From assembly GCA_963674755.2 (NCBI GenBank), contig CAXXVS010000001.1:480001-544000 (forward strand): a stretch of 64,000 nt of DNA, given 5' to 3'. Numbering within the stretch: the stretch's first letter is position 1; the number at the start of each line of letters is the position of its first letter. The position numbers were made by a program, and so were the translations under genes. Under the pieces are notes generated by a model. It was not told the origin of the DNA. It ran no database searches and was given only the letters and a program-made list of their open reading frames with translations. This document shows positions 46,074 through 62,933 of the stretch, piece after piece. This stretch comes from Desulfobacterales bacterium. GTDB taxonomy: Bacteria; Desulfobacterota; Desulfobacteria; Desulfobacterales; UBA5852.

Positions 46074-46101
46074 AGGGGCGGTCCCGTCGGGAACCGCCCC
46101 T
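46074..46101 (-). terminator. Terminator downstream of the acyl-CoA ligase
   Basis: GGGGCGGT.CC/GG.ACCGCCCC stem followed by TTCATTTTT on the minus strand. Confidence 0.6.
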
Positions 46102-46217: not shown

Positions 46218-48011
46218 CTAGTCCTCCGGATACATGGTATCGATTTCCGCGGCGAAGCGTCGGGCGATGACCTTGCGGCGGATTTTCTGGGTCGGTGTGA
46301 CTTCCCCCTCCTCTTGGGAAAACTCCCGGGGCAGCAAGGTAAAGGCTTTGATGGTTTCGAAACCGGCCAGTTCGCCGGATTGCTGATCGATGCGCTCCCG
46401 AAAGAAGCGGATGATGTCCGGATGTTTAACCAGTTCTTCCCGGGATCGGAAAGGAATGCCCTTTTCCCGGGCCAGCGTTTCGACGACCTCGAAGGAAGGC
46501 ACGATCAAGGCGCTGACGTATTTGCGGCGGTCGCCGATGGTGGCGATCTGTTCGATATAGTGGTCTTTGCCCACCGCGGTTTCGATGTGCTGGGGCGCAA
46601 TATTTTTCCCGCCCGAGGTGATGATCAGATCCTTGATGCGATCGGTGATGACCAAAAAGCCGTCGCCGTCGATCCGGCCTACATCGCCGGTGCGAAACCA
46701 GCCGTCGTCAAAAGCCGCGGCGGTGGCCTCCGGGTTGTTGTAGTAACCCAGCATGACGTTGGGACCCTTAACCTGGACTTCGTCGTTGGGCCCGATGCGG
46801 ACCCGGCAGCCCGGGACCGGCCGGCCGACCGTACCGAATTTGAAGTGCGGGGGGGTGTTGTAGCTGATCATGGGGGCAGTTTCCGTCAGACCGTAGCCCT
46901 GACAGACCAGCAGGCCCACATCCAGAAAGAAATCTTCGATCTCCTTGGCCAGGGGCGCACCTCCGGCCGAGAAGAAATTTTTATCGCCGCCCACGATGGC
47001 GCGGATCTTGCGCAGCACCAGCCGGTCGGCCAGCCGGTACTTGAAGGCTAGAATGCCTCCGGGCTTTCGATCGGCGCGCCGGGCATCCGCCCGCTGCCGA
47101 CCGATGGCAATCGCCCAGCTAAACAGATGCCGGCGCAGTGGGGGCGCCTTCTCAAGGCGGTCCATGATGGCGGCATGGACTTTTTCATAAAGGCGCGGCA
47201 CGCTGACCATGACGGTCGGTTGGACCTCGCCTAACGCCTGGAGGACCTCGCGGGGGTTTCTAATATAGTGGTTCTGGGCGCCCTGGTGGAAAACGAGATA
47301 GGACCAGCTGCGCTCATAGACATGGCTGAGGGGCAGAAAGCATAGGGAACGGTCCTCCGGGCGCACCTGGAAATGGGCATTCACGGCATCGATCTGGTGG
47401 AAGAAGCTCCCGTGGCTGAGCATCACCCCCTTGGGGTCGCCCGTGGTGCCGGAGGTATAGATGATGCTGGCCAGATGTCGGGACGTGTCGCAGGCCGGCC
47501 GTTCGGCGGGCAGGGTTTCATCCCGGGATGAGGGCGATGACGCCAGCAGGTCGCTGAAGGTTTGGGTGCGGTCCCCGTCTGCCGAAGGGGTGTCCGCTGC
47601 GTCGAAGCGGATGATATGGTCCAGCGGACCGTGGCGGTCGGCGAAAGAAGTTATTTTGGCGTACTGGGTTCCATCGCCCACAAAAAGGACCTTTATGCCG
47701 GCGTCGCGTACGATATATTCGGCCTGGCCGGCCGTATTGGTGGCATAAATCGGCACGGTAACAGCATCCACCGTCAGGATCCCGAAATCGGCGATGGCCC
47801 ATTCCGCGCAGTTCTGGGAAAAGATGCCCACCCGGTCCCCGGCCCTGACGCCCATGGCGGTGAGGGCCGCTGCGATGCGCCGGATCCGCTGGCCGAGTTC
47901 CCCATAGGTGATGGCCTGCCAGGCACCATTCGATTTATAGCGCATGGCCACCCGGTCGGCATGGCGGCGGCAGCTTTGGGCGATCATATCGGCGAGATGG
48001 CGCTGTTCCAT
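46218..48011 (-). CDS. Long-chain fatty acid-CoA ligase (FadD15/AMP-dependent family)
   Basis: YTSGTTGDPKGVMLSH, QGYGLTE, GWFRTGD.G, DRIKDLIITSGGKN. Confidence 0.93.
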   Translation of the reverse strand: MEQRHLADMIAQSCRRHADRVAMRYKSNGAWQAITYGELGQRIRRIAAALTAMGVRAGDRVGIFSQNCAEWAIADFGILTVDAVTVPIYATNTAGQAEYIVRDAGIKVLFVGDGTQYAKITSFADRHGPLDHIIRFDAADTPSADGDRTQTFSDLLASSPSSRDETLPAERPACDTSRHLASIIYTSGTTGDPKGVMLSHGSFFHQIDAVNAHFQVRPEDRSLCFLPLSHVYERSWSYLVFHQGAQNHYIRNPREVLQALGEVQPTVMVSVPRLYEKVHAAIMDRLEKAPPLRRHLFSWAIAIGRQRADARRADRKPGGILAFKYRLADRLVLRKIRAIVGGDKNFFSAGGAPLAKEIEDFFLDVGLLVCQGYGLTETAPMISYNTPPHFKFGTVGRPVPGCRVRIGPNDEVQVKGPNVMLGYYNNPEATAAAFDDGWFRTGDVGRIDGDGFLVITDRIKDLIITSGGKNIAPQHIETAVGKDHYIEQIATIGDRRKYVSALIVPSFEVVETLAREKGIPFRSREELVKHPDIIRFFRERIDQQSGELAGFETIKAFTLLPREFSQEEGEVTPTQKIRRKVIARRFAAEIDTMYPED

Positions 48012-48168
48012 GGCCAGTGTCCCCCTGTCGGTGAAAGCTTTTGTAAAGCGTGTCTGTCTTGCAGCCAAAGCCATACCACAGGCCGGGCGGCAGTCCAACA
48101 TCAATTTAAGTGAATACTATACGGTATGGCGGGCCGTCCGATAGACGGATGAAGGCGGCGTGCCGCGG

Positions 48169-48930
48169 TCAGGACACCATGGCGAAGGCGTAACCGGGAA
48201 AAAGCAGATGGGTGGCGAGGGAAAGGGAGGGAACGGGACACCCATCGTGGAAAATGGTGTCGTCCAGGATTTCCACCCGTTTGAGGCTTTCGTGGAACCC
48301 CAGACCGATATACTTGAGGTAGGCTTCCTTGGCGGTCCAAGACCGAAAGAGGGTGGCATCGTCCCGGGATTCGAGGGCTTGGACCTCCCGGGCGCTGAAA
48401 GCGGTGCGCAGGAGCGTTGACCGGTTCTCCGGTCGAATCTGTTCCAGATCCACCCCCAGGAGGCAGGCGGGCGCGAGCCCCATCCCGGCCACGGCAAAGT
48501 TCCCGGAGTGTGAAATGGAAAGACACAGGGCGGGGTCATCGCTGAAATAGGGGGCGCCTTTTTGCCGGTAGGCCACCCGGGTGTGGTCGAGGGGGGGGCG
48601 ATGTGGCCGGAAGTGTGCCGCCAGTTGCTTGGCCGCATAGCGCCCGGCGATCCATTCCACCTGTTTTTTGAGGGCTTTGAAACCATTCAGGAGGATCAAT
48701 TCATCCGACCCCAGGAAACACTCATGGAAATCCTGCGGTACAAAAACGCGCGGCGGCGCCGTGCGAAAGGCGCTTCCGACGGCAACCTTCAAAACGTTGT
48801 GCAATAAAGCGGGGATCGATACGAAGGCCAGGCGGTAACCCGGGCCGGGTCGTCGAAAACTGAGTACGGCGTCAGGTTCCGGCCCTTGGCTAAGGGGGGG
48901 GATGGGTGCGGTCATATGGGTATTCGACAT
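48169..48930 (-). CDS. 4'-phosphopantetheinyl transferase (Sfp-type)
   Basis: AGRYAAK, G.P, SISHS, GVDLE, WTAKEAYLK motifs. Confidence 0.9.
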   Translation of the reverse strand: MSNTHMTAPIPPLSQGPEPDAVLSFRRPGPGYRLAFVSIPALLHNVLKVAVGSAFRTAPPRVFVPQDFHECFLGSDELILLNGFKALKKQVEWIAGRYAAKQLAAHFRPHRPPLDHTRVAYRQKGAPYFSDDPALCLSISHSGNFAVAGMGLAPACLLGVDLEQIRPENRSTLLRTAFSAREVQALESRDDATLFRSWTAKEAYLKYIGLGFHESLKRVEILDDTIFHDGCPVPSLSLATHLLFPGYAFAMVS

Positions 48931-48984
48931 GACCGACGACCGGCCGAGACACATGCTCCGACCGGCCGTCGGCCTTCTATCCTT

Positions 48985-51900
48985 TTATGAGGCGCGCCGG
49001 GCGCTGCCGGTTTGCAGGGCATGCAATATCTGATCTTCCCCGGCCAGCCGGTCCACCTGGACCATCTGGAAGTCGTCGATGGCCATGTGCAGGCGGCCCG
49101 CTTCATCCACCAGACGAAGCTGGTAGGTATTGGTTTCCTCGCCCTGGTCGGTCTTTTCGGTGATGCACAGATAGGGCCTGCCCTTGGCGAGGGGCCGGTA
49201 GAAGCGCATGCGGCCGATGGCGTATGGCAGAACGATGATATTGGTGGTCATGACCTCGAGCATGCCGCCGGTCTGGAACATGGCATCCACCACGGCCACA
49301 TCGGTCAGAAAATCCGGCTGGGGGCAATCCGCAAAGAAAGGCTTCGTGCTGCGATTGACGATGCGGGAGATCAGCCGTTGGGGTTCGAAAGAGACAATGT
49401 CCTCCACCGTCCGGAAAAGGCCGTCCATGAACAGGCGCGACGGGTGGTAGAGCAGTTCCTGGATGTCACCGGCATAGTCCACGGGCCGAAACGGCGGCAG
49501 CGTGACCTGTTCGGAGGGCAGCGGCGTCGGTCCGAACCGGTAGGCGCCCTGGTAGTGCAGGGTGGGTTCGCCCATGGCGATGCCTTTGGGGTTGCGGAAC
49601 TGGGAACGGATGCGGCAGTCGAAGACCTCGTCATCCTTCTCTGATCGAACGGCTTCCACCAGGATTTCCTTGGGGCGTCCCTTGAGGATCTTAATGCCGT
49701 AGGGGATTTTGAAATCCCGCACTTCCTGTAGGGCGGCCTGCGGCGGGACCAGGGTGGCGGCCGCCTCGGCCATGGCTTCAATGCCGGTGGCGCCTAGGAA
49801 AATCGGGATGTCCTCCCGGCTGTGATCCAGCAGGAAAAGGTCCCGCTGGAGATCCAGAATGCGGCGGTAGATCCGGCTGTCCGCCGTTTGTTCCACAAGG
49901 CGATCGAGGAAGGGCGCCTGGGGGCCGGCCGGGGCAGCATCCTCGGGCGCTAAAAGACCGTCGGTGTCAAAGGCGCGGTCGATGCCGGAGAACACCACTT
50001 CGGAAGTGTTTGTGTCCCCCAGTTCTTGCATGAAATGCGCCACACCGTCTTCCAGGGGCAGGAAGGTCAGCCCCCGCTGCTTGAGGACCTTATTGACGGT
50101 TTCGTTGGTGGCCATGCCGGCGCCCTCCCAGGCGGTCCAATCGAAAATCTTGACCATCGTGTCGGGGTGGAGCGCTTGATAGTGCTGCAGCATTTTTCCG
50201 ATGGTGTCGTTGGCGGCCGTGTAATCCACCTGCCCCTCGTTGCCCAAGCGGGCGGTGACCGACGAAAAGGCCATGAGGTAACGCAGGGGATTTCCTTCCA
50301 GGGCTTTCAGGAGATTATGCAGACCGCGAACCTTGGTGTCGAACACCCGATCAAAGGAGGCCATGGTCTTCTTGGTGATGAACTGGCTTTCTTCGATGCC
50401 CGCGGCATGCAGCACGCCGTCCATTTTCCCGGTCCTTGCCAGGACCGCGTGAACGCTCGCGGCATCGGTGACATCCACGGCATGGTAGGTCACTCCGGCC
50501 CCCGAAGCGCGCAGGGTTTCAAGGTTGCGCAGGGAGGCCCGCAGGTTGAGCGTCCGGTTGAGGGCCTGTTTGACGGCCAGCGGCTTGGCCTCCGGCATCC
50601 GGGTTTTCAGCCGGGCCATGAGGGCCGGGAGGTCCAATGCCGGGTCGGCCAGGTCGGCATCCAGGTCGTCGAGGTTGCTGCGGCCCAGGATCACCAGCTT
50701 CACTTTGACGGCGGCAGTCAGCGCTTTCAGAATTTCAAAAGTGATGCCCCGTGCGCCTCCGGTAACGAGGAAGGTATCGCCCTCGCGAACGAAGCGCTTC
50801 CCCGTGTGCGGTGCCTGGGGGGTGAGCTGCAGGACCCATTTATTGCCGTTGGCGTACCCGCATTCCACCCGCGGATCGCCGGAGAGCAGTTCATCGAGCA
50901 GCGTTGTGACAATGGTCTCCGGAGCCTGCCGGAATTCGCTTTCAGCCAAATCCACGACCTTGACCCGGGTGTCCTTAAGTTCTTTGTTGACCGTCTTCAG
51001 CATGCCGGCCAGGCCGGCCATGAGCGGATCGATGGCCGCGCTGGTTTTCCGGTACGGGAATACGGTCGAGTGCACCGTCGGTACGGCGATAAAGGTCCCC
51101 GGGCGATCGAGCTGGTCATAGAGCCCCCGGATCAGGACGAAGAAGGCTTTCAGACTGCCGGCGATCCGCTGGGGCGCCAGGCGATCGGCCGTGCCGTAGG
51201 TTTCCAGGGGGAGCAGATGGATCACGCCGTCGATGCGTTGGCCGCTATCCAGCAGATGGCCGGGCAGGGCGGAAACCTTTTGGCGATCCTGCCAGTCGCA
51301 GGGGAATTCGACACTGTCGCCTGATCCCACAAGCACGGCATGTCCGCCCCGGGCCGTAATGTGCTCCGCCATCACGGCGGCCAGCTGGCTGCCGCCGGTC
51401 GTGATCAGGACCCGTTGCCCTGTCATTTTATCCGCCGGCCTGCTCGATTCATTGGCAGCCGGCACCGCTTCGATCACCAGACGCTTGACTGCGCTGTCCA
51501 GCGGCACGGCCGCGACAGGTCCGCGAGCGGCGGGTTCGGCCGCCGCCGGCGTCTCGGTTGTGGCTTGGGCTTCAGGGGAACCAGGGAGTTGTTTAGCGAG
51601 ATAATCGCTCAATTTGGCGATGGTGTTAAGATCGCGCAGTTTGAGGTCTTCGGGGACCTCGATGCCGAAGCGCTCGGATACCTTTCCGAAGATTTCCACC
51701 TGTTTGACGGTGTCGATGCCCAGATCGGCTTCCAGGTCGAGGCCGTCTTCGAGCATGTCGGTGGTATAGCCGGTCTGCTCGGCGACGATGGCCTTGACCG
51801 TGGCCTGGACATCACCATCGGCGGATTGCATTTCGACGGCCGGGGTCTGGGGCGCTGTAGCGGCGTTGCCCACCGGTACCTTTTGGGCCAGATAATCGCC

Positions 51901-54900
51901 CAGTTTGGCGATGGTGTTGAGATCGCGCAGTTTGAGGTCTTCGGGGACCTCGAGACCGAAGCGCTCGGAGAGTTTGCCGAAGATTTCCACCTGTTTGACG
52001 GTGTCGATGCCCAGATCGGCTTCCAGGTCGAGCGCGTCTTCGAGCATGTCGGTAGTGTAGCCGGTCTGCTCGGCGACGATGGTCTTGACTGTGGCCTGGA
52101 CGTCGGTGACGGCCGGTGTTTCCGTCGCCGGGGCTTGTTGCTGGGTAGCGGCCGTGCTTTGACCGGGCATTTTTGGGGTCAGATAGTCGCCCAGTTTGGC
52201 GATGGTGTTGAGGTCGCGCAGTTTGAGGTCTTCGGGGACATCGAGGCCGAAGCGCTCGGAGAGTTTGCCGAAGATTTCCACTTGCTTGACGGTGTCGATG
52301 CCCAGATCGGCTTCCAGGTCGAGGCCGTCTTCGAGCATGTCGGTGGTGTAGCCGGTCTGCTCGGCAATGATGGCCTTGACCGCGTCCAACATATTCCCGT
52401 CAGCGGCGACTGGCGCCGGTGCCGCCGCCGGCAATTGGTTCTCGGAAAGCGGTTTGGCCTCTGCCGCAGCGACCGGTTGGGACTTGGGCGGCGTGTCGGT
52501 GACCGGCGAAATGACGGTCGGGTCGATACACAGGGTGTTGTTGATGGTCGTCAGGCGGGGCCGTTTGAGGCCACTGATCTTTTGTAGCCAGGCCTGGTAG
52601 CGCGGATTGTCGGCGGCCCGGTTCTCTTCGATACGGCGGATCATGAGAAAAGCGAAGTGGGATCCGAATCCGGCGGCATAGTGCAGACCGAACTCGAAGG
52701 GCCCCTTGGACGCGTCCCGGCTGAAACGCAGGTCCCGGAACTCCTCCGGAATGTTGCTGAGGTTGGCGATGGGCGGCACCTGGTTGTGCTGAAGGGCCTT
52801 GACCATGACGGCGTCTTCGATGGCGGCGCCCAAAGTATGCCCGGTATAGCCTTTGGTATTGGTGATGGTGATGTCGCGGTAGTGTTCCGGAAAGGTCTTC
52901 TTGAGGGAGGCCACCTCGGCCGAGGCGCTTCCGCCCCGGGCAGGGGTGAAGGTCTCGTGGGACATGAAGACCATCTTGCGGGTGTAGTCGCGGCGATCGA
53001 GATCGTGACGGTGTTCCACCCGGCGCACGAAGCCTTCCATCTCCTCGGTCAGATGGCCGAGGTCGATCTGGGTGGCGTGATAGGCGCTGTTGCCGATATA
53101 GGTGCCCAGGATTTCGGCCTGACCGTTCAAGCCCCGCTCCCGGACCTGGTCTTCGCGTTCCACGATGAGGGAAACGGCGCCGGCGCCTAAAATGGTGCCG
53201 TTGCGGTCGGCGTCAAAGGGTTTGGCGGCCTCGGCCACCACGTTTTTGATGCTGGCGGCTCCGAGGGCCAGAAAGCCGGAAGCGATCCACGGACTTTGGG
53301 TTTCCGAGGTGGAGGCCTCGCCGCCGATCACGACGACCCGGTCGCAGCGTCCGGTGCGGATCCAGTCCTCGGCCACTCCGACGGCCTGGGTGGTGGAGGC
53401 ACAGGCGCCGCTCATGAGCATGTTGGGCCCCTTGGCTTTGATCAGCTGGGCGAAGTGGGCCGATCCCAGAGGCACCACATCGAAGAGCAGGTTGCGCTCG
53501 AACTGGTAGGTGCCGTATTTCTTGCGGCGCTCCTTGATTTTGAAAAACCAGTCGGTGATCTGTTCCTTGATGTCCGCGTCCCGCACGGATTCCATCAGAT
53601 GGTAGTAGATGTTCTCCAGCTCCTTGTAGGGCCGCACGTAGAACTTGTTGTAGTAGTATTTGTTGAGTTGCTCGATCAGGGTTTCAAACCCCGGAAAGAG
53701 AGAGGTCATGATGACGCCCGTGCGCCCCTGGAGCTCCCGCGGCAGGGCATAGCCGGCCGGAATCTGCTGCCCGGTGGAGGTTTGCTTGTGCTGCAGAACC
53801 AGGGGGATATGGGCGTCTTTGAGGGCCTCGATGCCGGCGGCGATGGCCAGGGAGATCGTGATGTCGTAGTCATAGTCCACGCCGTACTCGTTTTTCAGAT
53901 TGAAATAGCCGAGTTTGCCGGCTAGCTGGATCACGTCCTGGGTGTCGGTGATCTTGAGAAAGCGGGCATTGCCGTCGGGCTGCTTGAACACCCGGGTGAT
54001 ATTCATGTCGACAATTTTCTCCTTCTCCTGGGCGGAGAGCGGCTCGATAAAATTGTTGCCGCTGAGAAGCTTGTCGAAGTTGTTGGAATTGAAGACTTTG
54101 TTGCCGGTGCCCGGCAGTCCGATGGCGGTTCCGGCCACGACGGTCTTGCCCGTATAGAAGTTGAAGCGCTCCACCTCCTTGAGGGCCTGCTCCCGCTTCT
54201 GCTTCAGAAACTCCTGGTAGAGTACGCCCCGCAGGGCCTCTTCATTCTTCTGAAGAAAGGCTTCGAAGTCCGGGGCTTCCGCCAGGGCGGGTGGGCTGAC
54301 AACCTCCTCCGGCAGGTGGTCCGGGGAGGCCTGTGACGCCGCTTCGGCGGCATCTGTTCTTGCGATCAAGCCTTCTGCTGCCAGATGTGCTTTGAATTCC
54401 GCGAACGATTTGGTTTCACCGGCCTTGGCATCCACCGACGGCCGGGCATGGTAGTCTTCGATGCGGATATTCTTCAGTAGGTTGACCAGAATGCGGCCAG
54501 CGCCGATTTCGTAAAACCGAGCGTGGCCGGACTGGCGCACCCGCTCCACCGAGCGGATGAATTCCACCGGCGAGACGATCTGGCGCACCAGCAGGGCTTT
54601 GATCTCCTCGGTCTCTTCCGGATAGGGCGCAGCCGTCACGTTGGAGATAATCCGGCTGGTGTCCACCGGCCGGAAGGTGACGTCCCGCAGGTAGGCGGCC
54701 ATGCTGTCCGCCGCGCTTTGGAAGAGCGGCGTGTGGAAGGCGCCGGAAAGGGCCAGGGCCTTGAACATGACCTTGACTTCCTTGAGGTAGCCTCCGAAGG
54801 CTTCGATGGCCTCCTGGGCGCCCGAGACGGCGGTCTGGTTGTCGCTGTTCTTGTTGGCCACATAGATGTTGCGGATGCGGGAGGCCCGGATCAGCTGGTG

Positions 54901-57900
54901 GACGCGGTCGGCATTCTTGAAGACCACCATGATGCGGCCCGGCTGAACCTCGGTGGCCGCCTTCATGAAGTCGGCCCGTTTGACGATCAGCTGCATGGCG
55001 GCTTCGAAATTCAGCAGGCCGGCGCAGTACAGGGCGGTGTATTCGCCCACGCTGTGGCCGATAAAGCGGTCCGGTGCAAAGCCCCGGGCGGCCAGATCCG
55101 TATAGATGGCCGCCGAGCTCAAAAAGACCGCCGGCTGGGTGTTTTCGGTCAGGTTCAAACGGGCATCTTTGCCGAACATGATATCCAGCAGGCTGTAGCC
55201 GCGCATCTCCTGGAAGATCCGGTTGCCCTGGTCCAGGGTGGCCCGGATGGAGCGGTTTTCATGGTAGAGATCCTGCAGCATGCCGCCATACTGGGCCCCC
55301 TGGCCGGACACAAGCGCCACCACGCCGTTAGGTTTCGTGGGGATGGCGGCTGCGGGGCGGCGTGTCACCGCCGCGGTGGCTGTTACGGCCGGTTGGACGT
55401 CCGTTTGCAGCCAGGGCGGCAGGGTGCCGACTACGGTGTGGCCGTGGTTGCCGCCCACCCCGTTGACATTGGCGGCGAAGTAGAGGGTCTGCCGATTTTC
55501 CGGCTGTCGCAGGCGGGCGTTGGGCGCGAGACATGAATCGGAGCCCACAATGGCGGTATCGGGTGCGTAGCTGAAGTTGGGCAGCAGGGTTTGGGCACGG
55601 TTCATGAGGAGCAGCTTGGCAAGGGCGACGGCCGGGTTGGCGGATTTGAAATAGCCGAACTCCGGCTTGATGTTGCCGAAATAGACCGGCCGGTCAAAGG
55701 TGCGCTCGATGGCCTGCTTCTCCATCTGATCAAGCAGGCTGTTGGCCACGCCGAAGACGTCCAGGTGATCGATCTGGCGGGTGTTGACCGGCAGGCGGCG
55801 ATAGCTGTCCCGGATGGTGTCCCGATAGACTTTTTCGGACGGGGCCAGAAGATGGTCCGGCACGGAAGAACGGAAGGCGCTGTGGAGGAACTCGCCGATC
55901 ACAGGCATGCGGTGCTTTTTGGCATGGCCGTAGGTGGTCATGACCAGCAGGGCCGCGCCTTCGCTCATAACATAGCCCTTGGCCTGCTTGTCGAAGAAAC
56001 GGCAGTCTCCGTCGGACAGCAGGCTCAGGCGTTTGAAGGCCAGCATCACGGTGGGGTAGAAATTGGCGTCCACTCCGCCGGTTAGCACGCTGTCGAACTC
56101 CCCGCTGCGCAGGCCCATGGCCGCCAGCCGGGTGGCCACGGTGGCCGACGCACAGGAGGCGTCCACCACGAAATTGGCCCCGTTACAGCCGAAGGTGTTG
56201 GCAATGCGTCCGGAAACGATGTTGGACAGCAGACCGGGGATCGTGTCCTCGTTATTTTCAGGAATGCGGTCCCGGATTTGCTCCCCCAGACGGGCGGCGA
56301 TGGCTTTTTTGGTTTTCTCCGCGGTGCCTGCCAGGCGGTTGATGATGCCTTCGATCATCCCCAGGCGGACCCGCAGGATGTTCTGCACCTGGCGCTCCCC
56401 CGGCAGGGTCCCCAGCACCACCCCCACCCGGTTGCCGTGGGCCAGCTGGGATTCCAGGGTGGCGGCGTCGATGGCCTGCCGGGCGGCATCCAGGGCGAAG
56501 AGCTGGGCCCGGTCCAGGGAACGGGCCGTGGCCGGCGGGATGCGGAATTGCACGTTGTTGAAGCGGTAGTCCTTCACCACCCCGGCTTTGACGAGGGGGA
56601 TGTGGTAGCTGGCGTCGGCCGGCTCGGCGGCATAGGCGCTGTTATGAAAGCGTTCTTCCGGGATGGTGGACAGCACCGATCGGCCTTCGGTCAGGTTGTG
56701 CCAGAAGGTATCCACGTCCGGCGATTCCGGCAGTACGACGCCCATACCGGCAAAAACGATGCGGTCGTCGTTGAAGTCGTAGTCCAGGTCGGCAAAGATG
56801 CGGCGCGGCCGGCAGGTGTGTTCGGGAGTGTGCTCGGCCACCACGCAGTGGTAGTTGATGCCGCCGAAGCCGTAGGAGCTCACGGCCGCCATGCGCGGGC
56901 GGCCGGCGTCGGCCTCCCACTCCCGGGCCTCCTCGATGATATAGAGCGGGGTGTCCCTAAGGCTGTGGGCCGGGGCCAGCGTTTCGAAGCGGCCGTTGGG
57001 GGGCAGGGTGTGATGGTTGATGGCCAGAATGGCCTTGATCATGCCGGCATAGCCGGCGCCGCCCAGCAGATGGCCGATCTGGGATTTGATGGAGCTGATG
57101 CCGATGGGGTGCTCGCTCCGGTAGATTTTCTTGAGCGTTTCGATTTCGGCCTGGTCGCCGGCGATGGTCGATGTCCCATGGGCTTCGATATACCCGATGT
57201 CGGAAACCGTCACCGGATCGCGCATGTCCGCAAAGCAGCGTTCCAGCGCCAAGGCTTGCCCGTCGGGGTTGGGGGCGGCGATGGCTTTGCCTTTGCCGTC
57301 CGAGCTGGATCCGATGCCTTTCACCACGGCATAAATCTTGTCTCCGTCCCGCAGGGCGTCTTTCAAGCGTTTGAGGACCACCACGCCGGCGCCTTCCCCC
57401 AGGACGAACCCGTCGGCCCGGGTATCGAAGGGGTAGGAACCTTTGGCCGAAAGGGCTCCCATCTTGGAAAATCCCACGAAGGATTCCGGGGCCAGGTTGG
57501 TGTTGACCCCGCCGGAAATCACCAGGTCGTATTCGCCGCTGAGCAATTCCTTGACAGCACAGTCCAAGGCGGCAAAGGAAGTCGCGCAGGCTGCGTCCAC
57601 CACATAGTTGATGCCCGTGATGCCCAAATGGTGGGCGATGCGGGAGGCTTCGATATTGAGCAACTGGCCGTGCACGGGTTCGTAGTCCATCCCGTTGGCC
57701 ATGCCCTCGCGCAGGGTCGTGAGCAGCGCTTCGCGTTCGTCTTCCGCCAGGGTGTTGAATTCCTCGATCTGCTCCAGGTGATGACGTACTTCGGGATACC
57801 AGTATTTCAGGTGCAGATCGTTGCCCAGTTCGTTGCCCAGGCAGGTGGCCACAATGACGGCCGTGGAGGCCTGGTAGGCCGCATCCAGACTCAAATCCTC

Positions 57901-60300
57901 TTGCAGATAACCGGCGTCGGCCACGGCCCGGTAGGCCGCTTCCAGAACCATTTGCTGACTGCGGGAAAGGCGGGTTGCCTTGTCGGCGGTGTAGCCGTAG
58001 CGGTCGTGGTCGAAATGGAAATCCCGCACCACGCCGGCGATCTTAGTGTAGCTCTTGTCGGTGGCCTTGCGATTCTCGTCGAAATAGAGGGCCGGATCCA
58101 GACGGTCAGCCGGCATTTCACCGATGGCGTAGGCTTTGGCAATGACATTTTCCCAGAGTTGTTCCGGGCTGTCGGCCCCCGGGTAAATGCAGCCCATGCC
58201 GATTACGGCGACGTCGTCTTCAATGGCATGGCGTGGGCTGGTGAGAACTTCAAGCGCGTTGAGCTGCCGGAAGAGATCTTCCTTGCGGTGGAAGAAGGTC
58301 TTGTGGATATCTTCGATGGTGGTGCTGCAAGGGTTGAAGGCCAACCCATCCCCCACCATGAAGTTGCCCTTTTCGAATTGTTCCTTTTCATCGTAATGGA
58401 GAAAGCAGACGTCGCCGCTTGCTTTGTCAAACTTCGGGCAAAAGGCCTTGGCGCCGATCAGCAGGGATCCGATATTGTCTTTTTCAAAGGCTTTCTTGCG
58501 CTCCTCCAGGGAGAGCCCCTCCCGTATGCGCTGGTGCTCGTTTTCGATCATGCGCTGGGAGAAGGGGGTCGCCACCGTGCGGGAGGCCAACCCCACCGTG
58601 GTCCCCATGACGATGGTTTCATCCCGCTCGCAGACCACGTCCTGGTAGATTTTTTTGATGGCGCCGGTTTCGATGATTTCGCAGGAGAAAAGATAGGCCG
58701 TACCCACCTGAATGCCGATCTTGACGCCCCGGCCGGCCAAGCGGGCGGTCATGCCGGAAATGAAGTGGGGCGCCCGGTGGGTGCCGATCCCACCGGCGAA
58801 GATCATGGTTTTGTCCCCCAGCTGGCCGTCCGGCAGCGCGCTCATTTTCTCCATGGCGAGCTCCCACAGCACCAGGCTGCTCAAGGTGCCCACGTGGCCG
58901 CCGGCCTCGGCGCCTTCGAAGATAAACCGCCGGCAGCCTTTCTGCAGGGCGTTTTCGAGCATCATCAGGCTGGGGGTGTGGAGATAGGTCTTGGTTCCGG
59001 CCGCTTCCAGATCCTTCACCTGGGAGGGAATCCCCCCGGCGAAAAGGGCAAAGGGCGCGTTGTATTTCTTTACGGAATCCAGGTGGTGGCTGATGGTGGG
59101 GTTGAAGGCTTCGATGCCGATCATGCCGGCCCCGAAGCGCTCCACCTTGGCTTGGCCGGCGGCCAGCATGTCGTCGGCCAGATTGGCCGGCAGGTTGCCC
59201 AGGGCGAAAAAGGGCAGGCCGCCGGCGGCGAAGACCGCGGCGGCGAAATCGGCATTGTCGCTCACATTGGCCATGGGGCCCTGGATGATGGGGTAGCGCG
59301 TGCCGTGCTCCCGGGCCAGGGCGCTCTCCGCCCGCATGGGGTCATGGGCGTCGACGGCCTGCAGCTGTTCGCCGATATGGGTGAAGAGGCCCGTTATCAT
59401 GGCGGCCAGGGTGGCGCTGTGGCGGGCGAAGTGCCGTGCAAAGACCGCGTCCTGACCCAGGTAGAAGAGACTTTGCAGGGGCGTGTCGCTGGGCGTGCCC
59501 AGATCGGCCATGTTTGCTTCGATGTCGTGGTAGAGCAGGGCATCGGCATCTTCCCCGCCGGCCAGCTGGATTTCCCGATCCCGCAGGGTCTTGACGATGC
59601 GGGTGCCCAGCTTGGCGAAGAAATGGTAGCGGACCTGGAGGGATTGACCGATGATGGTGGCATCCTTTTCCTCCAACTGGCCGATGACATCCTTGTATAC
59701 CGGGGCCAGGGGGGCTTCTTGGGCCAGGAAGAGCTGGTTGTCCAGGACGATGCCTTCCGCGCCCATGGCGAACAGGCCGGCGGCCGTATGCCAGCCCACA
59801 CCGCCGTGGACGAATACGGGCCACTCGCCGTTGTTGAGGTACCACTGCAGCAGGACAAAGGACGAATAGCGGGAAACCTTGCCCGGTCCTTCATGGCCTT
59901 TGACGATCAGGCCGTGGGGGTCGATGCGCGTCAGCGAATCCTTCAGGTTGATGTCGGTGGTTTCGATGAAGAACCGATAATCGCGGTTGTCGAACCGGAA
60001 TCCATCCAGATCGGCGGGGGTGCGATAGGTGAAAACGATCAGGTCCAGGTTGGCGATGCTGTTGGTTTCCAGATAGTCACGCAGGGCCTGGTTATCGACG
60101 GCCAGACGCAGGCCGAAGATCAGCTCGTTTTGGGAGAGGGTTTCGACCATTTGGATGATATCGGTATTGGTGAAAAACTCCGTGTCCAGCATCGGCAGGG
60201 CGCCGGCCGTATGGAGGCTTCGGAAATAAGTGAGGTCGAATACCTTCGATGGATGATAAACCAACAGGGGCAAACGGGCACTGATACGTCTCGCGATCAT
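48985..60300 (-). CDS. Single-polypeptide PUFA-synthase-like iterative type I PKS/FAS (ER'-ER-KS-KS*-MAT-KS-ACPx3-KR-DH), 3771 aa
   Basis: IIQGPM..EG.EAGGH (FabK/PfaD-like ER); DAAC..HGT..GH (KS1); DASC without His (KS2); GQG, GHSVG, AFH (MAT); SGAC..HETFT..GH (KS3); LEADLGIDT x3; TGGARG..Y..AN (KR); LDH..D..FQ (DH). Confidence 0.93.
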   Translation of the reverse strand: MIARRISARLPLLVYHPSKVFDLTYFRSLHTAGALPMLDTEFFTNTDIIQMVETLSQNELIFGLRLAVDNQALRDYLETNSIANLDLIVFTYRTPADLDGFRFDNRDYRFFIETTDINLKDSLTRIDPHGLIVKGHEGPGKVSRYSSFVLLQWYLNNGEWPVFVHGGVGWHTAAGLFAMGAEGIVLDNQLFLAQEAPLAPVYKDVIGQLEEKDATIIGQSLQVRYHFFAKLGTRIVKTLRDREIQLAGGEDADALLYHDIEANMADLGTPSDTPLQSLFYLGQDAVFARHFARHSATLAAMITGLFTHIGEQLQAVDAHDPMRAESALAREHGTRYPIIQGPMANVSDNADFAAAVFAAGGLPFFALGNLPANLADDMLAAGQAKVERFGAGMIGIEAFNPTISHHLDSVKKYNAPFALFAGGIPSQVKDLEAAGTKTYLHTPSLMMLENALQKGCRRFIFEGAEAGGHVGTLSSLVLWELAMEKMSALPDGQLGDKTMIFAGGIGTHRAPHFISGMTARLAGRGVKIGIQVGTAYLFSCEIIETGAIKKIYQDVVCERDETIVMGTTVGLASRTVATPFSQRMIENEHQRIREGLSLEERKKAFEKDNIGSLLIGAKAFCPKFDKASGDVCFLHYDEKEQFEKGNFMVGDGLAFNPCSTTIEDIHKTFFHRKEDLFRQLNALEVLTSPRHAIEDDVAVIGMGCIYPGADSPEQLWENVIAKAYAIGEMPADRLDPALYFDENRKATDKSYTKIAGVVRDFHFDHDRYGYTADKATRLSRSQQMVLEAAYRAVADAGYLQEDLSLDAAYQASTAVIVATCLGNELGNDLHLKYWYPEVRHHLEQIEEFNTLAEDEREALLTTLREGMANGMDYEPVHGQLLNIEASRIAHHLGITGINYVVDAACATSFAALDCAVKELLSGEYDLVISGGVNTNLAPESFVGFSKMGALSAKGSYPFDTRADGFVLGEGAGVVVLKRLKDALRDGDKIYAVVKGIGSSSDGKGKAIAAPNPDGQALALERCFADMRDPVTVSDIGYIEAHGTSTIAGDQAEIETLKKIYRSEHPIGISSIKSQIGHLLGGAGYAGMIKAILAINHHTLPPNGRFETLAPAHSLRDTPLYIIEEAREWEADAGRPRMAAVSSYGFGGINYHCVVAEHTPEHTCRPRRIFADLDYDFNDDRIVFAGMGVVLPESPDVDTFWHNLTEGRSVLSTIPEERFHNSAYAAEPADASYHIPLVKAGVVKDYRFNNVQFRIPPATARSLDRAQLFALDAARQAIDAATLESQLAHGNRVGVVLGTLPGERQVQNILRVRLGMIEGIINRLAGTAEKTKKAIAARLGEQIRDRIPENNEDTIPGLLSNIVSGRIANTFGCNGANFVVDASCASATVATRLAAMGLRSGEFDSVLTGGVDANFYPTVMLAFKRLSLLSDGDCRFFDKQAKGYVMSEGAALLVMTTYGHAKKHRMPVIGEFLHSAFRSSVPDHLLAPSEKVYRDTIRDSYRRLPVNTRQIDHLDVFGVANSLLDQMEKQAIERTFDRPVYFGNIKPEFGYFKSANPAVALAKLLLMNRAQTLLPNFSYAPDTAIVGSDSCLAPNARLRQPENRQTLYFAANVNGVGGNHGHTVVGTLPPWLQTDVQPAVTATAAVTRRPAAAIPTKPNGVVALVSGQGAQYGGMLQDLYHENRSIRATLDQGNRIFQEMRGYSLLDIMFGKDARLNLTENTQPAVFLSSAAIYTDLAARGFAPDRFIGHSVGEYTALYCAGLLNFEAAMQLIVKRADFMKAATEVQPGRIMVVFKNADRVHQLIRASRIRNIYVANKNSDNQTAVSGAQEAIEAFGGYLKEVKVMFKALALSGAFHTPLFQSAADSMAAYLRDVTFRPVDTSRIISNVTAAPYPEETEEIKALLVRQIVSPVEFIRSVERVRQSGHARFYEIGAGRILVNLLKNIRIEDYHARPSVDAKAGETKSFAEFKAHLAAEGLIARTDAAEAASQASPDHLPEEVVSPPALAEAPDFEAFLQKNEEALRGVLYQEFLKQKREQALKEVERFNFYTGKTVVAGTAIGLPGTGNKVFNSNNFDKLLSGNNFIEPLSAQEKEKIVDMNITRVFKQPDGNARFLKITDTQDVIQLAGKLGYFNLKNEYGVDYDYDITISLAIAAGIEALKDAHIPLVLQHKQTSTGQQIPAGYALPRELQGRTGVIMTSLFPGFETLIEQLNKYYYNKFYVRPYKELENIYYHLMESVRDADIKEQITDWFFKIKERRKKYGTYQFERNLLFDVVPLGSAHFAQLIKAKGPNMLMSGACASTTQAVGVAEDWIRTGRCDRVVVIGGEASTSETQSPWIASGFLALGAASIKNVVAEAAKPFDADRNGTILGAGAVSLIVEREDQVRERGLNGQAEILGTYIGNSAYHATQIDLGHLTEEMEGFVRRVEHRHDLDRRDYTRKMVFMSHETFTPARGGSASAEVASLKKTFPEHYRDITITNTKGYTGHTLGAAIEDAVMVKALQHNQVPPIANLSNIPEEFRDLRFSRDASKGPFEFGLHYAAGFGSHFAFLMIRRIEENRAADNPRYQAWLQKISGLKRPRLTTINNTLCIDPTVISPVTDTPPKSQPVAAAEAKPLSENQLPAAAPAPVAADGNMLDAVKAIIAEQTGYTTDMLEDGLDLEADLGIDTVKQVEIFGKLSERFGLDVPEDLKLRDLNTIAKLGDYLTPKMPGQSTAATQQQAPATETPAVTDVQATVKTIVAEQTGYTTDMLEDALDLEADLGIDTVKQVEIFGKLSERFGLEVPEDLKLRDLNTIAKLGDYLAQKVPVGNAATAPQTPAVEMQSADGDVQATVKAIVAEQTGYTTDMLEDGLDLEADLGIDTVKQVEIFGKVSERFGIEVPEDLKLRDLNTIAKLSDYLAKQLPGSPEAQATTETPAAAEPAARGPVAAVPLDSAVKRLVIEAVPAANESSRPADKMTGQRVLITTGGSQLAAVMAEHITARGGHAVLVGSGDSVEFPCDWQDRQKVSALPGHLLDSGQRIDGVIHLLPLETYGTADRLAPQRIAGSLKAFFVLIRGLYDQLDRPGTFIAVPTVHSTVFPYRKTSAAIDPLMAGLAGMLKTVNKELKDTRVKVVDLAESEFRQAPETIVTTLLDELLSGDPRVECGYANGNKWVLQLTPQAPHTGKRFVREGDTFLVTGGARGITFEILKALTAAVKVKLVILGRSNLDDLDADLADPALDLPALMARLKTRMPEAKPLAVKQALNRTLNLRASLRNLETLRASGAGVTYHAVDVTDAASVHAVLARTGKMDGVLHAAGIEESQFITKKTMASFDRVFDTKVRGLHNLLKALEGNPLRYLMAFSSVTARLGNEGQVDYTAANDTIGKMLQHYQALHPDTMVKIFDWTAWEGAGMATNETVNKVLKQRGLTFLPLEDGVAHFMQELGDTNTSEVVFSGIDRAFDTDGLLAPEDAAPAGPQAPFLDRLVEQTADSRIYRRILDLQRDLFLLDHSREDIPIFLGATGIEAMAEAAATLVPPQAALQEVRDFKIPYGIKILKGRPKEILVEAVRSEKDDEVFDCRIRSQFRNPKGIAMGEPTLHYQGAYRFGPTPLPSEQVTLPPFRPVDYAGDIQELLYHPSRLFMDGLFRTVEDIVSFEPQRLISRIVNRSTKPFFADCPQPDFLTDVAVVDAMFQTGGMLEVMTTNIIVLPYAIGRMRFYRPLAKGRPYLCITEKTDQGEETNTYQLRLVDEAGRLHMAIDDFQMVQVDRLAGEDQILHALQTGSARRAS
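51600..52385 (-). repeat. Three near-identical tandem ACP-coding repeats (291-bp period)
   Basis: GATCTGGGCATCGACACCGTCAA repeated, with Thr codons at 52291-52293, 52000-52002 and 51709-51711. Confidence 0.92.
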
Positions 60301-60631: not shown

Positions 60632-61597
60632 CTATTTCAGAGGCATGTCGAATTTCAGATGGATTGCGAAATCGCCAAAATAAAGAGGGGTTACGGCCAC
60701 CGTCGCCCCGGTGCGTTCCAGGGTTTGCCGTTTGCCGCCCACCTCCAGGGTGGCCCTGATTTTCAGGTGGCGTCCCAGAAGCATGCGGGCGGCCTTGTCG
60801 GTGGCTTTGATGTAGAACGACAGTCCTGTATTGGATAGGTCGGCCATGTCGCCGCGGAAGGGTTTGCCCAGCAACGCCTTAGCCGTGTCCATCATCTGGG
60901 CCACGATGAGACCCTCGACTTTGATACGGCGGCTCTGGCGTCGCTCGAGTCCTTTGGCGGTGACGAGTTTGCCCACATCCTTCGCCTGGCAGAATTCTCG
61001 TAGTTTGGTTTCCAGGGCGGGCAGGGATTCTTTCCATTCGCCCAAATGCGTATTGTCGATCACCTGAAGCTCCGCATGAGACTGAACCGCCAGGGATGTG
61101 GTGCAGGTGGTGGTGGCGAAAAAAGTGTCCTGGCCGGCGACATCACCCGGTTCCAGGGTGGTGATGAGGCTGTCTTGGCCTTCGCGGGAAAAGTAGAGTT
61201 TCAGTTGGCCCTGCTGAATGAAAAAAAGGCGGGTATTGATATCGCCCTGCCGGTAGAGCACTTCCCCGGCATCCAGCGCCAGCGGCTGTTGGGCGAAATA
61301 GAGGGCGTTGGTCTCCTCTTCGGAGAGCCGGTCGTAAAGCGCCCTGAACCGCTCAATGTGATTCGGGTCGATGGCCCCGCTTTTCTCCGCTTCGATGATT
61401 TCGGCCGCTTTGATGATTTCGGTAAGGGCCATCTCGTCCACGGCCATCAGGCGTTCGCGCATGGCTTCGGCTTTGGGGAAATTCTTGGCCCGGGCATGCT
61501 GTGCGACCAGGTCATAGAAGCATTTGACGGCGGCCTGGGTGTCGCCGTCGCGGGCATATTGCTCGGCCTGTTCTTCCAGTCGGGCGATATCGTCCAT
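60632..61597 (-). CDS. Cyclic-nucleotide-binding + PilZ domain protein
   Basis: GEVLYRQGD...LFFI..G.L (cNMP); ERRQSRR and DLSNTG (PilZ RxxxR, DxSxxG); helical N-terminus. Confidence 0.85.
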   Translation of the reverse strand: MDDIARLEEQAEQYARDGDTQAAVKCFYDLVAQHARAKNFPKAEAMRERLMAVDEMALTEIIKAAEIIEAEKSGAIDPNHIERFRALYDRLSEEETNALYFAQQPLALDAGEVLYRQGDINTRLFFIQQGQLKLYFSREGQDSLITTLEPGDVAGQDTFFATTTCTTSLAVQSHAELQVIDNTHLGEWKESLPALETKLREFCQAKDVGKLVTAKGLERRQSRRIKVEGLIVAQMMDTAKALLGKPFRGDMADLSNTGLSFYIKATDKAARMLLGRHLKIRATLEVGGKRQTLERTGATVAVTPLYFGDFAIHLKFDMPLK

Positions 61598-61895
61598 GCT
61601 ACGCGTCTCCAACGCCGGAGCGGTTGGGAAGCCGAGCGGTGCGCCGGGGTAGAGCTAGTCTAGGTCGCATTGGATTCCGGCGTTGATTCCGATGGACCGG
61701 ACCACCGGCCGCCCGCTCTGCCAGCCTGTTTTGTCGCTGATCTTACAACAAATTCACTATAGACGATAAAATCCGGTTGATCAACCGGCTGTGCCGCAGG
61801 AGGCGTTGTCCGCCCAACTTTGCCCTTGCAAAAACCAGGCATTGCCACTATGAAACAGACTTTTAAGAATTACTCAAAACTAAAGTGGACAAGCC

Positions 61896-62933
61896 ATGAA
61901 CTCATCGGTCATTCGTGCTCGGCAAAATCTTTCCGTCGATATCGAGGCCTTGACCCGCCTGATTCTCGACCAGCAGCGTGCGAGCGGTGAAATTCCCTGG
62001 TGCGACGGGCAGAAAACCGATCCCTGGGATCATGTGGAATCCGCGATCGGATTGACCATCGGCGGCCATTACGAAGCCGCCCGGCGGGCCTACGAGTGGA
62101 TGCGCCGGACCCAGCTGGATGACGGCAGCTGGTATGCCGCCTATCGTGACGGCCGGCCGGAGGACCGCACCCGGGACGCCAATCTTTCCACCTATATCGC
62201 GGTGGGGATCTATCATTATCTTCTCGTCACCGGTGACCGGGCGTTTGCGGAAGCCCTCTGGCCGACGGTGCGTGACGCCATTGAATTCGCCCTGAAGCTG
62301 CAAACCCCGGAAGGCCCGATCCACTGGGCCATCAGCCCCGAGGGCCGGGTGGACGCCATGGCCTTGCGGACCGGGTCGAGTTCGGTGTTCATGAGCCTCA
62401 AATGCGCGCTCAAACTGGCCGAGCTCCTGGGCCGCCCACGGCCCCGCTGGGTTGACGCCCTCGGTCGCCTCCAGGACGCGTTGTGCCGCAAGCCCCATCT
62501 TTTCAACATGACCAAATCGCGTTTTTCCATGGACTGGTTCTACCCGGTTCTCTGCGGTGCCCTGCAGGGTGACGATGCCCGCCGGCGCATCGACAAATAC
62601 TGGAAGAAGTTCGTCGTGGAAGGCCAGGGGGTGCGCTGTGTCTACGATGAGCCCTGGATTACCGTCGCCGAAACCTGCGAACTCGTCCTGTCTTTGGCGG
62701 CCATGGGCAACGAGGCGCTGGCCCGGATCGTCTTCGGCTGGATCAGCACCAAGCGCTTCGAAGACGATACCTACTGGTGCGGCTTTACCTTTCCGGATAT
62801 GGTGATCTGGCCGGAAGACAAGATTAGCTGGACCAATGCCGTCGTCCTCATGGCGCTGGATGCCCTCTATCACCTGACCCCCGCCAGCCAGTTGTTCCAT
62901 CACGCCAGCTGGGATGACCGCGCTCCGGTCTGA
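61896..62933 (+). CDS. alpha/alpha-barrel 'prenyltransferase-like' / GH15-like protein
   Basis: G.IPW..G...DPWDHVE, Q..DGSW, RFSMDWFYPVL, PWITVAETCEL motifs. Confidence 0.75.
   Translation: MNSSVIRARQNLSVDIEALTRLILDQQRASGEIPWCDGQKTDPWDHVESAIGLTIGGHYEAARRAYEWMRRTQLDDGSWYAAYRDGRPEDRTRDANLSTYIAVGIYHYLLVTGDRAFAEALWPTVRDAIEFALKLQTPEGPIHWAISPEGRVDAMALRTGSSSVFMSLKCALKLAELLGRPRPRWVDALGRLQDALCRKPHLFNMTKSRFSMDWFYPVLCGALQGDDARRRIDKYWKKFVVEGQGVRCVYDEPWITVAETCELVLSLAAMGNEALARIVFGWISTKRFEDDTYWCGFTFPDMVIWPEDKISWTNAVVLMALDALYHLTPASQLFHHASWDDRAPV

Follow-up and report, generated by a model that had tools for sequence, protein, structure and literature searches.

All three carrier domains (ACPs) of a single-chain megasynthase encoded in the 64,000 nucleotides analysed here (the window) bear threonine at the position of serine, the usual carrier-protein residue holding the phosphopantetheine cofactor. 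With good confidence, Thr-linked phosphopantetheine is regarded as the best reading of this locus, because the catalytic domains are intact, Thr is found family-wide and one PPTase lineage is inherited together with the synthase. The protein is likely to be active as a self-contained, iterative synthase of fatty-acyl chains (Type S/R), the ACPs of which would take 4'-phosphopantetheine on the Thr hydroxyl. The carrier Ser is treated as invariant and the Ser-to-Thr exchange represents a dead control in E. coli, ACP S36T being described there as not accepting the cofactor and as failing to support growth (PMC3340395, excerpts); this result counts against a Thr-linked cofactor.

The domains and neighbouring genes are compiled in Table 1; no thioesterase was found in the 3771-aa synthase. 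The initial annotation had placed a Sfp-type PPTase gene directly after that of the synthase, and at this locus it indeed begins 30 bases past the synthase stop. The ligase-like gene adjoins the PPTase gene in close relatives only and was recovered from 5 of 79 related loci. Most of the synthase gene is spanned by contigs (~86–92 % identical) of a single RNA library, in which DNA may have been present.

Table 1 Features of the synthase locus (positions refer to the window)
Feature	Positions	Strand	Remarks
Single-chain iterative FAS/PKS megasynthase, 3771 aa	48985..60300	(-)	ORF; ER-KS1-KS2(CLF-like)-MAT-KS3-ACPx3-KR-DH
N-terminal FabK/NMO-like enoyl reductase (ER) region	58261..60300	(-)	bounds approximate; His469 conserved; PF03060; TIGR03151 in two stretches
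KS1	56806..58218	(-)	Cys905-His1041-His1077
KS2, CLF-like	55411..56766	(-)	lower bound approximate; Cys kept, both His replaced by Phe, Tyr
Malonyl/acyl transferase (MAT)	54481..55311	(-)	Ser1750, Arg1775, His1856
KS3, divergent FabF-like ketosynthase	52501..54183	(-)	Cys2300-His2448-His2488; marker domain of the family
ACP1	52180..52386	(-)	Thr2670 (codon 52291-52293) at phosphopantetheine position; PF00550
ACP2	51889..52092	(-)	Thr2767 (codon 52000-52002); PF00550
ACP3	51598..51801	(-)	Thr2864 (codon 51709-51711); PF00550; AlphaFold model
Ketoreductase (KR)	50125..50775	(-)	Lys3323, Ser3347, Tyr3360
PKS-type dehydratase (DH)	49021..49923	(-)	bounds approximate; His3493 and Asp3672; PF14765
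Sfp-fold PPTase	48169..48954	(-)	lineage co-inherited with synthase
Long-chain acyl-CoA ligase-like protein	46218..48104	(-)	likely start 48011
Intrinsic-terminator-like hairpin	46074..46101	(-)	closes three-gene run; 12-pair stem and T tail; consensus match only

The three ACP repeats are near-identical to one another, and each reads LGID-T-VKQ with ACC as acceptor codon, so that the earlier assignment of Thr to all three carrier domains stands. In alignments with solved ACPs, this Thr occupies the column of the cofactor Ser. An AlphaFold model of repeat 3 (pLDDT 88.6), the fold of which matches AcpP (TM about 0.7–0.85), shows helix II beginning with this residue. The repeats thus display the helical bundle of PF00550 with an acceptor that follows Asp and opens helix II, the Ser acceptor of this family being replaced by Thr in 3 of 3 repeats. 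As proposed earlier, no further PF00550 match occurs within the 64,000 nucleotides; eight others are located elsewhere in the genome, among them a Ser-type AcpP and a Ser-type PfaA.

Near-identical repeats sharing a single codon could in principle stem from a sequencing error, or from an inactivation confined to one strain and copied between the repeats by gene conversion. The presence of Thr, encoded by four different codons, in hundreds of homologues across phyla already refutes this explanation by counts and leaves it with next to no probability. Among 278 pooled KS3-bearing relatives, a set reaching down to 37 % KS3 identity, the acceptor site is occupied by 894 Thr, 16 Ser and 1 Lys, i.e., by a hydroxyl residue in 910 of 911 motifs. 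Thr was likewise found at 331 of 334 ACP matches in 120 homologues collected via a different domain (KS3), and an independent set retrieved with KS1 peptides yielded 120 Thr and 1 Ser in 46 of 80 loci. The acceptor codons of 79 loci comprise every ACN triplet (126/54/30/27) plus one TCA; from the occurrence of all four triplets across phyla, a recoding of ACN as Ser was rejected by inference. Ser-bearing members comprise two Ser-only and ten mixed Ser/Thr proteins; with 16 of 911 motifs, Ser is about as rare at the acceptor site as in those columns of the domain where Thr is structural. The Thr acceptor is therefore a family trait and not the strain-specific loss, with DS in the homologues, that would have refuted the earlier proposal, and, judged from these counts, Thr is held at the cofactor position by selection across phyla.

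No other conserved Ser or Cys was observed in 1062 Thr-type ACP rows (27 % in the top Ser column), which rules out an alternative acceptor inside the ACP domain. In helix II, positions +1 and +3 are Val and Gln in Thr-type ACPs but Ile and Arg/Lys in the Ser-type ACPs of Pfa systems; PfaA ACPs, including that of the host genome's own PfaA, have Ser-Ile-Lys-Arg/Lys following Asp. Steric compensation (Thr-Val versus Ser-Ile) holds true between the families but fails within the present one, where 14 of the 16 Ser forms keep Val.

The PPTase has a Sfp fold (best folds 2cg5 and 4mrt, TM about 0.6) and keeps residues matching H90, D107, E109, K150, E151 and K155 of Sfp, which we take to be the CoA/Mg and general-base residues; the pseudo-dimeric fold together with these residues places it among Sfp-type (group II) PPTases. 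Co-occurrence of this PPTase clade with the synthase, named earlier as a check, was found in the identical 21 of 121 genomes of the order, which fall into 13 families and, being related, are not independent; PPTase-clade matches in these 21 genomes have E values of ≤2.4e-22, the next best match being at 4.5e-12. In a spirochaete class, the 22 genomes that score best against the PPTase profile include all 19 synthase carriers (of 81 genomes). The PPTase is present in 31 of 32 complete metagenome loci and is fused to the synthase in 36 of 375 pooled proteins, 35 of which have Thr ACPs. Adjacency is not general: of the 79 loci fetched, 13 include the PPTase, and distances of 0.4 and 1.3 Mb separate the two genes in two well-assembled genomes; they are thus inherited together even when unlinked. 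A common origin of all these PPTases, fused and discrete, did not emerge from the tree, in which the discrete group has a support of 81; two rows, L157 and L158, carry the label cognate by default. No PPTase residue tracking Thr use was evident by eye among the alignment output listed.

The Thr-ACPs might nevertheless never be loaded and be structural or docking elements, while the catalytic domains serve a discrete Ser-AcpP in trans, e.g., with MAT replacing FabD. This would agree with the unmodified E. coli S36T (PMC3340395, excerpts), the discrete ACPs found in 14 of 18 carriers, the FabF-like nature of KS3 and the reported ability of PfaA MAT to replace FabD. An inert site should drift, yet the acceptor hydroxyl is kept almost throughout; furthermore, the repeats number from 1 to 8 in the family, as in working tandem-ACP synthases, and the fusions and the co-inheritance of the unlinked PPTase argue against idle carriers. 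In two of the 18 genomes (incomplete assemblies), the Thr-ACPs are the sole PF00550 matches and the PPTase is still kept. A permanently unloaded state is considered quite improbable, even though a Ser-ACP may act in trans in the present genome.

Alternatively, Thr could carry the cofactor with nothing special being needed, i.e., as an early-fixed, tolerated swap loaded by any broad Sfp-type PPTase, the co-inherited enzyme reading the helix II surface and not the methyl group. Repeated emergence of Ser forms in the family and the accompanying differences at +1 and +3 of helix II are in line with such tolerance, as is the finding that the cognate PPTase is the sole PF01648 match in 6 of 18 genomes which also hold Ser-type carrier proteins (five drafts and one single contig). 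However, Ser is only one base away and yet remains rare, and the present genome keeps a second, generic Sfp-type PPTase in addition to the cognate one, rendering this an improbable account. The same six genomes and the Ser-only and mixed arrays speak against the term "orthogonal" applied to the PPTase in the initial annotation. Because such arrays exist inside the family, the cognate PPTase probably loads both Ser and Thr carriers.

Returning to a synthase loaded on Thr, every aligned catalytic residue of KS1, MAT, KS3, KR, DH and ER is kept in 120 close homologues, which agrees with the intact appearance earlier ascribed to KS1, MAT, KS3, KR and ER. The ER His was found in 114 of these homologues (unaligned in 6) and both DH residues in 106 (unaligned in 14); the KS3 triad is invariant where aligned, and the best solved relatives of KS3 are FabF enzymes. 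With respect to a primary role in fatty acid synthesis, the domains of a complete reductive cycle are present, acetyl-CoA carboxylase genes are frequent neighbours (16 of 32 complete metagenome loci), and FabD and FabF both score above cut-off in only 2 of 21 carriers versus 79 of 100 non-carriers. FabD was not found in 18 of the 100 non-carriers. No FabD-like match was detected in 40 of 81 spirochaete genomes, and the synthase MAT is the sole such match in eight. The host genome also has FabF, FabZ and FabH-like genes and a Ser-PfaA cluster. In most carriers, the synthase probably takes the place of a type II pathway that is incomplete, and bulk membrane fatty acids are somewhat favoured as its product.

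A secondary lipid (very long chain, branched, diol or ether-lipid precursor), compatible with the Thr-linked cofactor, is an unlikely though serious alternative. It would accord with a Pfa-like ancestry, two active KS plus CLF, the patchy spread of the synthase (21 of 121 and 19 of 81 genomes), the many distant members without ER and a FabD-level match kept in 5 of 21 carriers. Conversely, linked genes encode carboxylase and TetR rather than tailoring enzymes, the FabD and FabF pair is seldom complete in carriers, and the spirochaete genomes with the synthase MAT as sole FabD-like match also speak against it.

By its domain sequence, the synthase is a member of the uncharacterised Type S/R family of Shulse and Allen (2011; PMC3098273, excerpts). 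Type S was described in silico from the single genome of Desulfobacterium autotrophicum HRM2 as ER-KS-CLF-AT-KS-ACP3-KR with an adjacent PPTase, and the authors suggested a possible core fatty acid synthase. The window synthase shares this domain order and the neighbouring PPTase gene, whereas its C-terminal DH is absent from the 2011 architecture listing. HRM2 protein P0071, equated with the published protein by organism and architecture and not by accession number, is 51 % identical over 3878 columns and has Thr in all three ACPs. Type R of Roseiflexus, Solibacter, Koribacter and Elusimicrobium was given as KS-MAT-'CLF'-ACP(3-6)-KR with PPTase and sometimes a carboxylase subunit (PMC3098273, excerpts). 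Proteins of Roseiflexus, Anaerolinea and Bellilinea share KS3 and Thr-ACPs with the window synthase but, unlike it, Type R proteins are without a CLF-like KS2 and mostly without ER; their so-called CLF keeps Cys-His-His in 154 of 158 cases (4 unaligned), and many of them, records named as archaeal included, carry the PPTase as a fusion.

In common with the window synthase, PUFA synthases (PfaA-E) have MAT, KR, PKS-type DH, FabK-type ER, a dedicated Sfp-type PPTase and tandem ACPs, the helix I-loop-helix II stretch of which is almost the same in sequence. They differ in having several genes, FabA-type DHs and no FabF-like KS ahead of the ACPs, and the window synthase, with its extra ER, CLF, KS3 and Thr ACPs, scores 948.5 against the cut-off of 1010.1 for the PfaA model TIGR02813. 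Fungal and mycobacterial/corynebacterial type I FAS likewise have one polypeptide, an FMN-type ER, no thioesterase and a primary role, with a fused PPTase in fungi, but show another domain order, a single Ser-ACP and an AcpS-type PPTase; this likeness is one of general features and weak PPTase matches. A chemical precedent is provided by ApbE-type enzymes, which attach FMN to a Thr hydroxyl by a phosphodiester, although cofactor, enzyme and acceptor fold all differ.

Members of the family occur in Chloroflexota and Spirochaetota as well as in records carrying the names Thermoplasmatota and Asgard; one search gave 2788 KS3 matches among the 7997 candidates that it scored. Cultured carriers include D. 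autotrophicum, Desulfobacula toluolica, Desulfobacter spp. and Anaerolinea thermolimosa. A metagenome scan with an Asgard-named protein as query gave no match, and PDB searches with ACP, PPTase and KS3 retrieved no structure of this family. In the literature searched, no description of a Thr acceptor for phosphopantetheine was found; subscription journals lay outside this scope and may hold a prior remark. The word "Threonine" is absent from the main text of Shulse and Allen (2011; PMC3098273), the alignment figures of which were outside the scope. Thr and the co-travelling PPTase, as judged from sequence, suggest an undescribed way of cofactor attachment.

In the proposed mechanism, the co-inherited Sfp-fold PPTase would move phosphopantetheine from CoA onto the Thr that opens helix II, and it would probably load ordinary Ser-ACPs as well. 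MAT would then load malonyl, often supplied by a neighbouring acetyl-CoA carboxylase, KS1/CLF and FabF-like KS3 would catalyse condensation, perhaps at different chain lengths, and KR, DH and FabK-type ER would finish the reductive cycle. Chain exit without thioesterase could proceed by transfer to CoA or AcpP, or by hydrolysis and re-activation by the adjacent ligase. We tentatively propose that Types R and S may constitute an unrecognised class of primary type I FAS, the synthase-PPTase-carboxylase cassette having been transferred among anaerobic bacteria and archaea, and that O-phosphopantetheinyl-threonine, lying beyond standard PPTases, may partly insulate the carriers from the AcpS and type II machinery of the host.

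If true, natural loading of Thr would represent a new post-translational linkage, annotation rules would be dismissing thousands of synthases as inactive although these are intact, and the PPTase/ACP pair could serve for labelling and pathway insulation. It would also bear on the now testable question of how acyl chains are made where the type II pathway is not complete, as in sulfate reducers, Chloroflexota and some archaea.

The synthase gene is followed by genes for the cognate Sfp-type PPTase and an acyl-CoA ligase and then by a terminator-like hairpin; of its upstream neighbours, the cNMP-binding protein is a possible regulator. The KS1 and KS3 triads, Ser/Arg/His of MAT, Lys/Ser/Tyr of KR, His/Asp of DH and His of ER, which we take to be catalytic from known motifs, are unchanged wherever aligned in 120 close homologues, in agreement with the initial annotation that KS1, MAT, KS3, KR and ER look intact. 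Both His of KS2 are lost in this alignment, and by its sequence the domain is CLF-like. KS3 is nearer to FabF than to PKS ketosynthases.

Synthase gene and upstream features in the window
Feature	Position	Strand	Remarks
Synthase ORF, 3771 aa	48985-60300	-	ER, three KS-fold domains, MAT, three ACPs, KR, PKS-type DH
cNMP-binding protein	60632-61612	-	just upstream of synthase, same strand; also present in the two closest loci
345-aa protein	61896-62933	+	no Pfam match; weak glycoside-hydrolase-like NCBIfam match; conserved upstream of synthase in the two closest loci

The annotated Thr at the phosphopantetheine site was confirmed for all three ACPs (residues 2670, 2767 and 2864; codon ACC in each): it falls on the cofactor Ser in alignments to solved ACPs, and helix II starts at Thr in a single-sequence AlphaFold model (pLDDT 88.6) whose fold matches AcpP structures. 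Helix II is unlike that of Pfa ACPs at +1 and +3 also. Homologues were searched for with KS3, because an ACP query could bias the Thr count. Thr proved conserved: ACP domains were present in 118 of the best 120 of 826 matches, with 331 Thr, 2 Ser and 1 gap. Among 150 representatives listed from a whole-library ACP search, 97 had Thr and 53 were Ser-type, the latter mostly PfaA-like and without KS3. Querying with a Thermoplasmatota member yielded at least 120 further proteins, including records named Chloroflexota, Thermoplasmatota, Kariarchaeaceae and Heimdallarchaeota. KS3 reached at least 300 bits in 278 of 375 pooled proteins, which represent 90% or 50% clusters and not independent events; their well-formed motifs comprise 894 Thr, 16 Ser and 1 Lys, a count leaving out degenerate ACP-like domains of some distant members (per protein: 263 Thr-only, 10 mixed, 2 Ser-only, 1 Thr plus Lys, 2 without motif). 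All four Thr codons are used in 79 genome loci, beside one TCA, and 46 of 80 metagenome loci found by KS1 peptides contained motifs (120 Thr, 1 Ser). In a KS3 tree built with FastTree from 111 of the 278 proteins (midpoint root), the Ser-only forms are two separate tips within Thr clades, pointing to reversions. No other conserved Ser or Cys column was present in 1062 Thr-type ACP rows. Judged from these sequences, Thr is a family trait.

In several mixed arrays (proteins P0266, P0269, P0271, P0273, P0274, P0276, P0277, P0278 and P0280), Ser occupies the first repeat and Thr the rest; the first repeat may have a different job. A KS-KS-AT protein group that lacks KS3 and is partly named Myxococcota (P0158, P0165, P0213) has Thr-type ACPs too. 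Seven synthase records named Heimdallarchaeota, Kariarchaeaceae, Thermoplasmatota, Euryarchaeota or Methanobacteriota (P0177, P0279, P0307, P0181, P0265, P0286, P0293) mostly have a fused PPTase.

In silico catalogues have included this gene family since 2011; the literature found names no product for it. Domain order and PPTase are the same as in Type S, and distant members match Type R, as far as the accessible text of Shulse and Allen (PMC3098273) describes these types; the word threonine is absent from its main text. A D. autotrophicum HRM2 protein shares 51% identity with the synthase. No description of a Thr acceptor was found in the literature searched (subscription papers, bioRxiv supplements and figure files being outside its scope), nor in the accessible text of PMC13291983 and PMC4882568. 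Thr-type ACPs are surprising because E. coli ACP S36T, also used as a variant in PMC13343975, is described as unmodifiable and non-functional (PMC3340395; both papers in their accessible parts), which is the main reason for doubting Thr loading.

The cognate PPTase has a predicted Sfp fold (pLDDT 93.6; best matches 2cg5 and 4mrt) and retains residues aligning with Sfp H90, D107, E109, K150, E151 and K155. The Thr motif co-occurs with this PPTase clade: KS3 is present in 21 of 121 genomes of the order, and the window PPTase as query gave E at most 2.4e-22 in exactly these 21 (next best 4.5e-12), whose first ACPs carry Thr in 18 and Ser in 1, with 2 not captured. Adjacency alone does not account for this: in two well-assembled genomes, 0.4 and 1.3 Mb separate the two genes. 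Of 79 loci fetched, only 13 include the PPTase. Within a spirochaete class, KS3 occurs in 19 of 81 genomes (Thr in 60 of 60 motifs), and the 22 genomes that match the PPTase profile best comprise all 19 carriers and three non-carriers. Of 375 proteins, 36 combine the synthase with a PPTase domain in one chain, 35 of them with Thr ACPs, and 31 of 32 metagenome loci hand-picked as reaching the synthase end have a PPTase, fused in 9. In the PPTase tree the discrete enzymes separate from the fused ones with modest support, and the tree does not demonstrate a common origin. In loci L128 and L143 (genomes G083 and G094), the PPTase match is interrupted by an in-frame TGA in one genome and broken into two pieces in the other.

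The initial proposal of an orthogonal PPTase is not supported. In 6 of 18 carrier genomes no PPTase other than the cognate enzyme was found, though other carrier proteins are present, and one of the six, which has a Ser-type synthase, is assembled completely as a single contig; strict orthogonality is thus very improbable. The complete 2.1 Mb genome G024 (loci L114 and L142) is a natural control: its synthase is Ser-type (TCA), it has one PPTase, and both FabD and FabF stay below the cut-off. The source genome also encodes a second, generic Sfp-type PPTase, a Ser AcpP, a three-ACP Ser PfaA cluster adjoining ole-like genes, and four more ACP matches. By eye, oleA/oleD-like genes come after this canonical Ser-type pfa cluster (G000:C2:832400-858000, contig C2 of the source genome), which therefore probably represents the hydrocarbon pathway. 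On contig C3, acpP (C3:12706) and fabF (C3:61804-63150, adjoined by a quinone-oxidoreductase-like gene) appear by eye as orphans far apart, without fabD or fabG beside them.

No stand-alone FabD was found in the source genome. FabD exceeded the cut-off in 5 of 21 carriers versus 82 of 100 other genomes of the order, FabF in 15 versus 94, and both in 2 versus 79; these counts were made by hand from score tables, with some FabD-level matches belonging to trans-AT enzymes and FabF scoring limited to 13 candidates per genome, and no significance is claimed because the 21 carriers fall in 13 families. In 8 spirochaete carriers the synthase MAT is the sole FabD-like match, though 40 of the 81 genomes of that class have none. 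Of the 32 metagenome loci, 16 have carboxylase genes next to the synthase; in spirochaete loci, TetR genes flank it and an ORF of roughly 1,890 aa follows directly, the one scanned being a single-chain carboxylase. In several bacterial loci (L066:12901-18564, L190:10339-16002, L224:18699-24014), the gene immediately after the synthase encodes a single-chain acetyl-CoA carboxylase of eukaryote-like architecture (about 1,800-1,900 aa, BC-BCCP-CT, with an ACC central domain in one). A FabI-like reductase or acyl-CoA dehydrogenase just upstream in distant members (L226:9194-9970, L232:8168-9877, L245:8206-9852, L261:8151-9863) is a candidate for the enoyl reductase that most of these lack.

The loss of FabD also fits a model in which the catalytic domains work with a separate carrier and the Thr-ACPs are not loaded, since a PfaA MAT can replace FabD in trans (PMC8174602, accessible text). 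Discrete ACPs occur in 14 of 18 carriers and a carrier domain inside an 830-860 aa protein in 2 more (Ser in the one read), leaving Thr-ACPs alone in only 2, both incomplete genomes. Yet an inert site would not be expected to be confined to hydroxyl residues in ACPs amplified one to eight times, nor to be tied by fusion and co-inheritance to a catalytically intact PPTase. The simplest interpretation is that the co-inherited PPTase would place phosphopantetheine on the ACP Thr and that the synthase would run a full iterative reductive cycle. From these sequence patterns, a Thr-linked cofactor appears quite likely, and loading is somewhat more apt to need a special PPTase than not; how chains are released and how KS1 and KS3 share the work is guesswork. 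In view of the missing fabA and fabZ, Type S has been proposed as a possible core fatty acid synthase (Shulse and Allen, PMC3098273, accessible text), and for the present synthase bulk fatty acids are the moderately favoured product.
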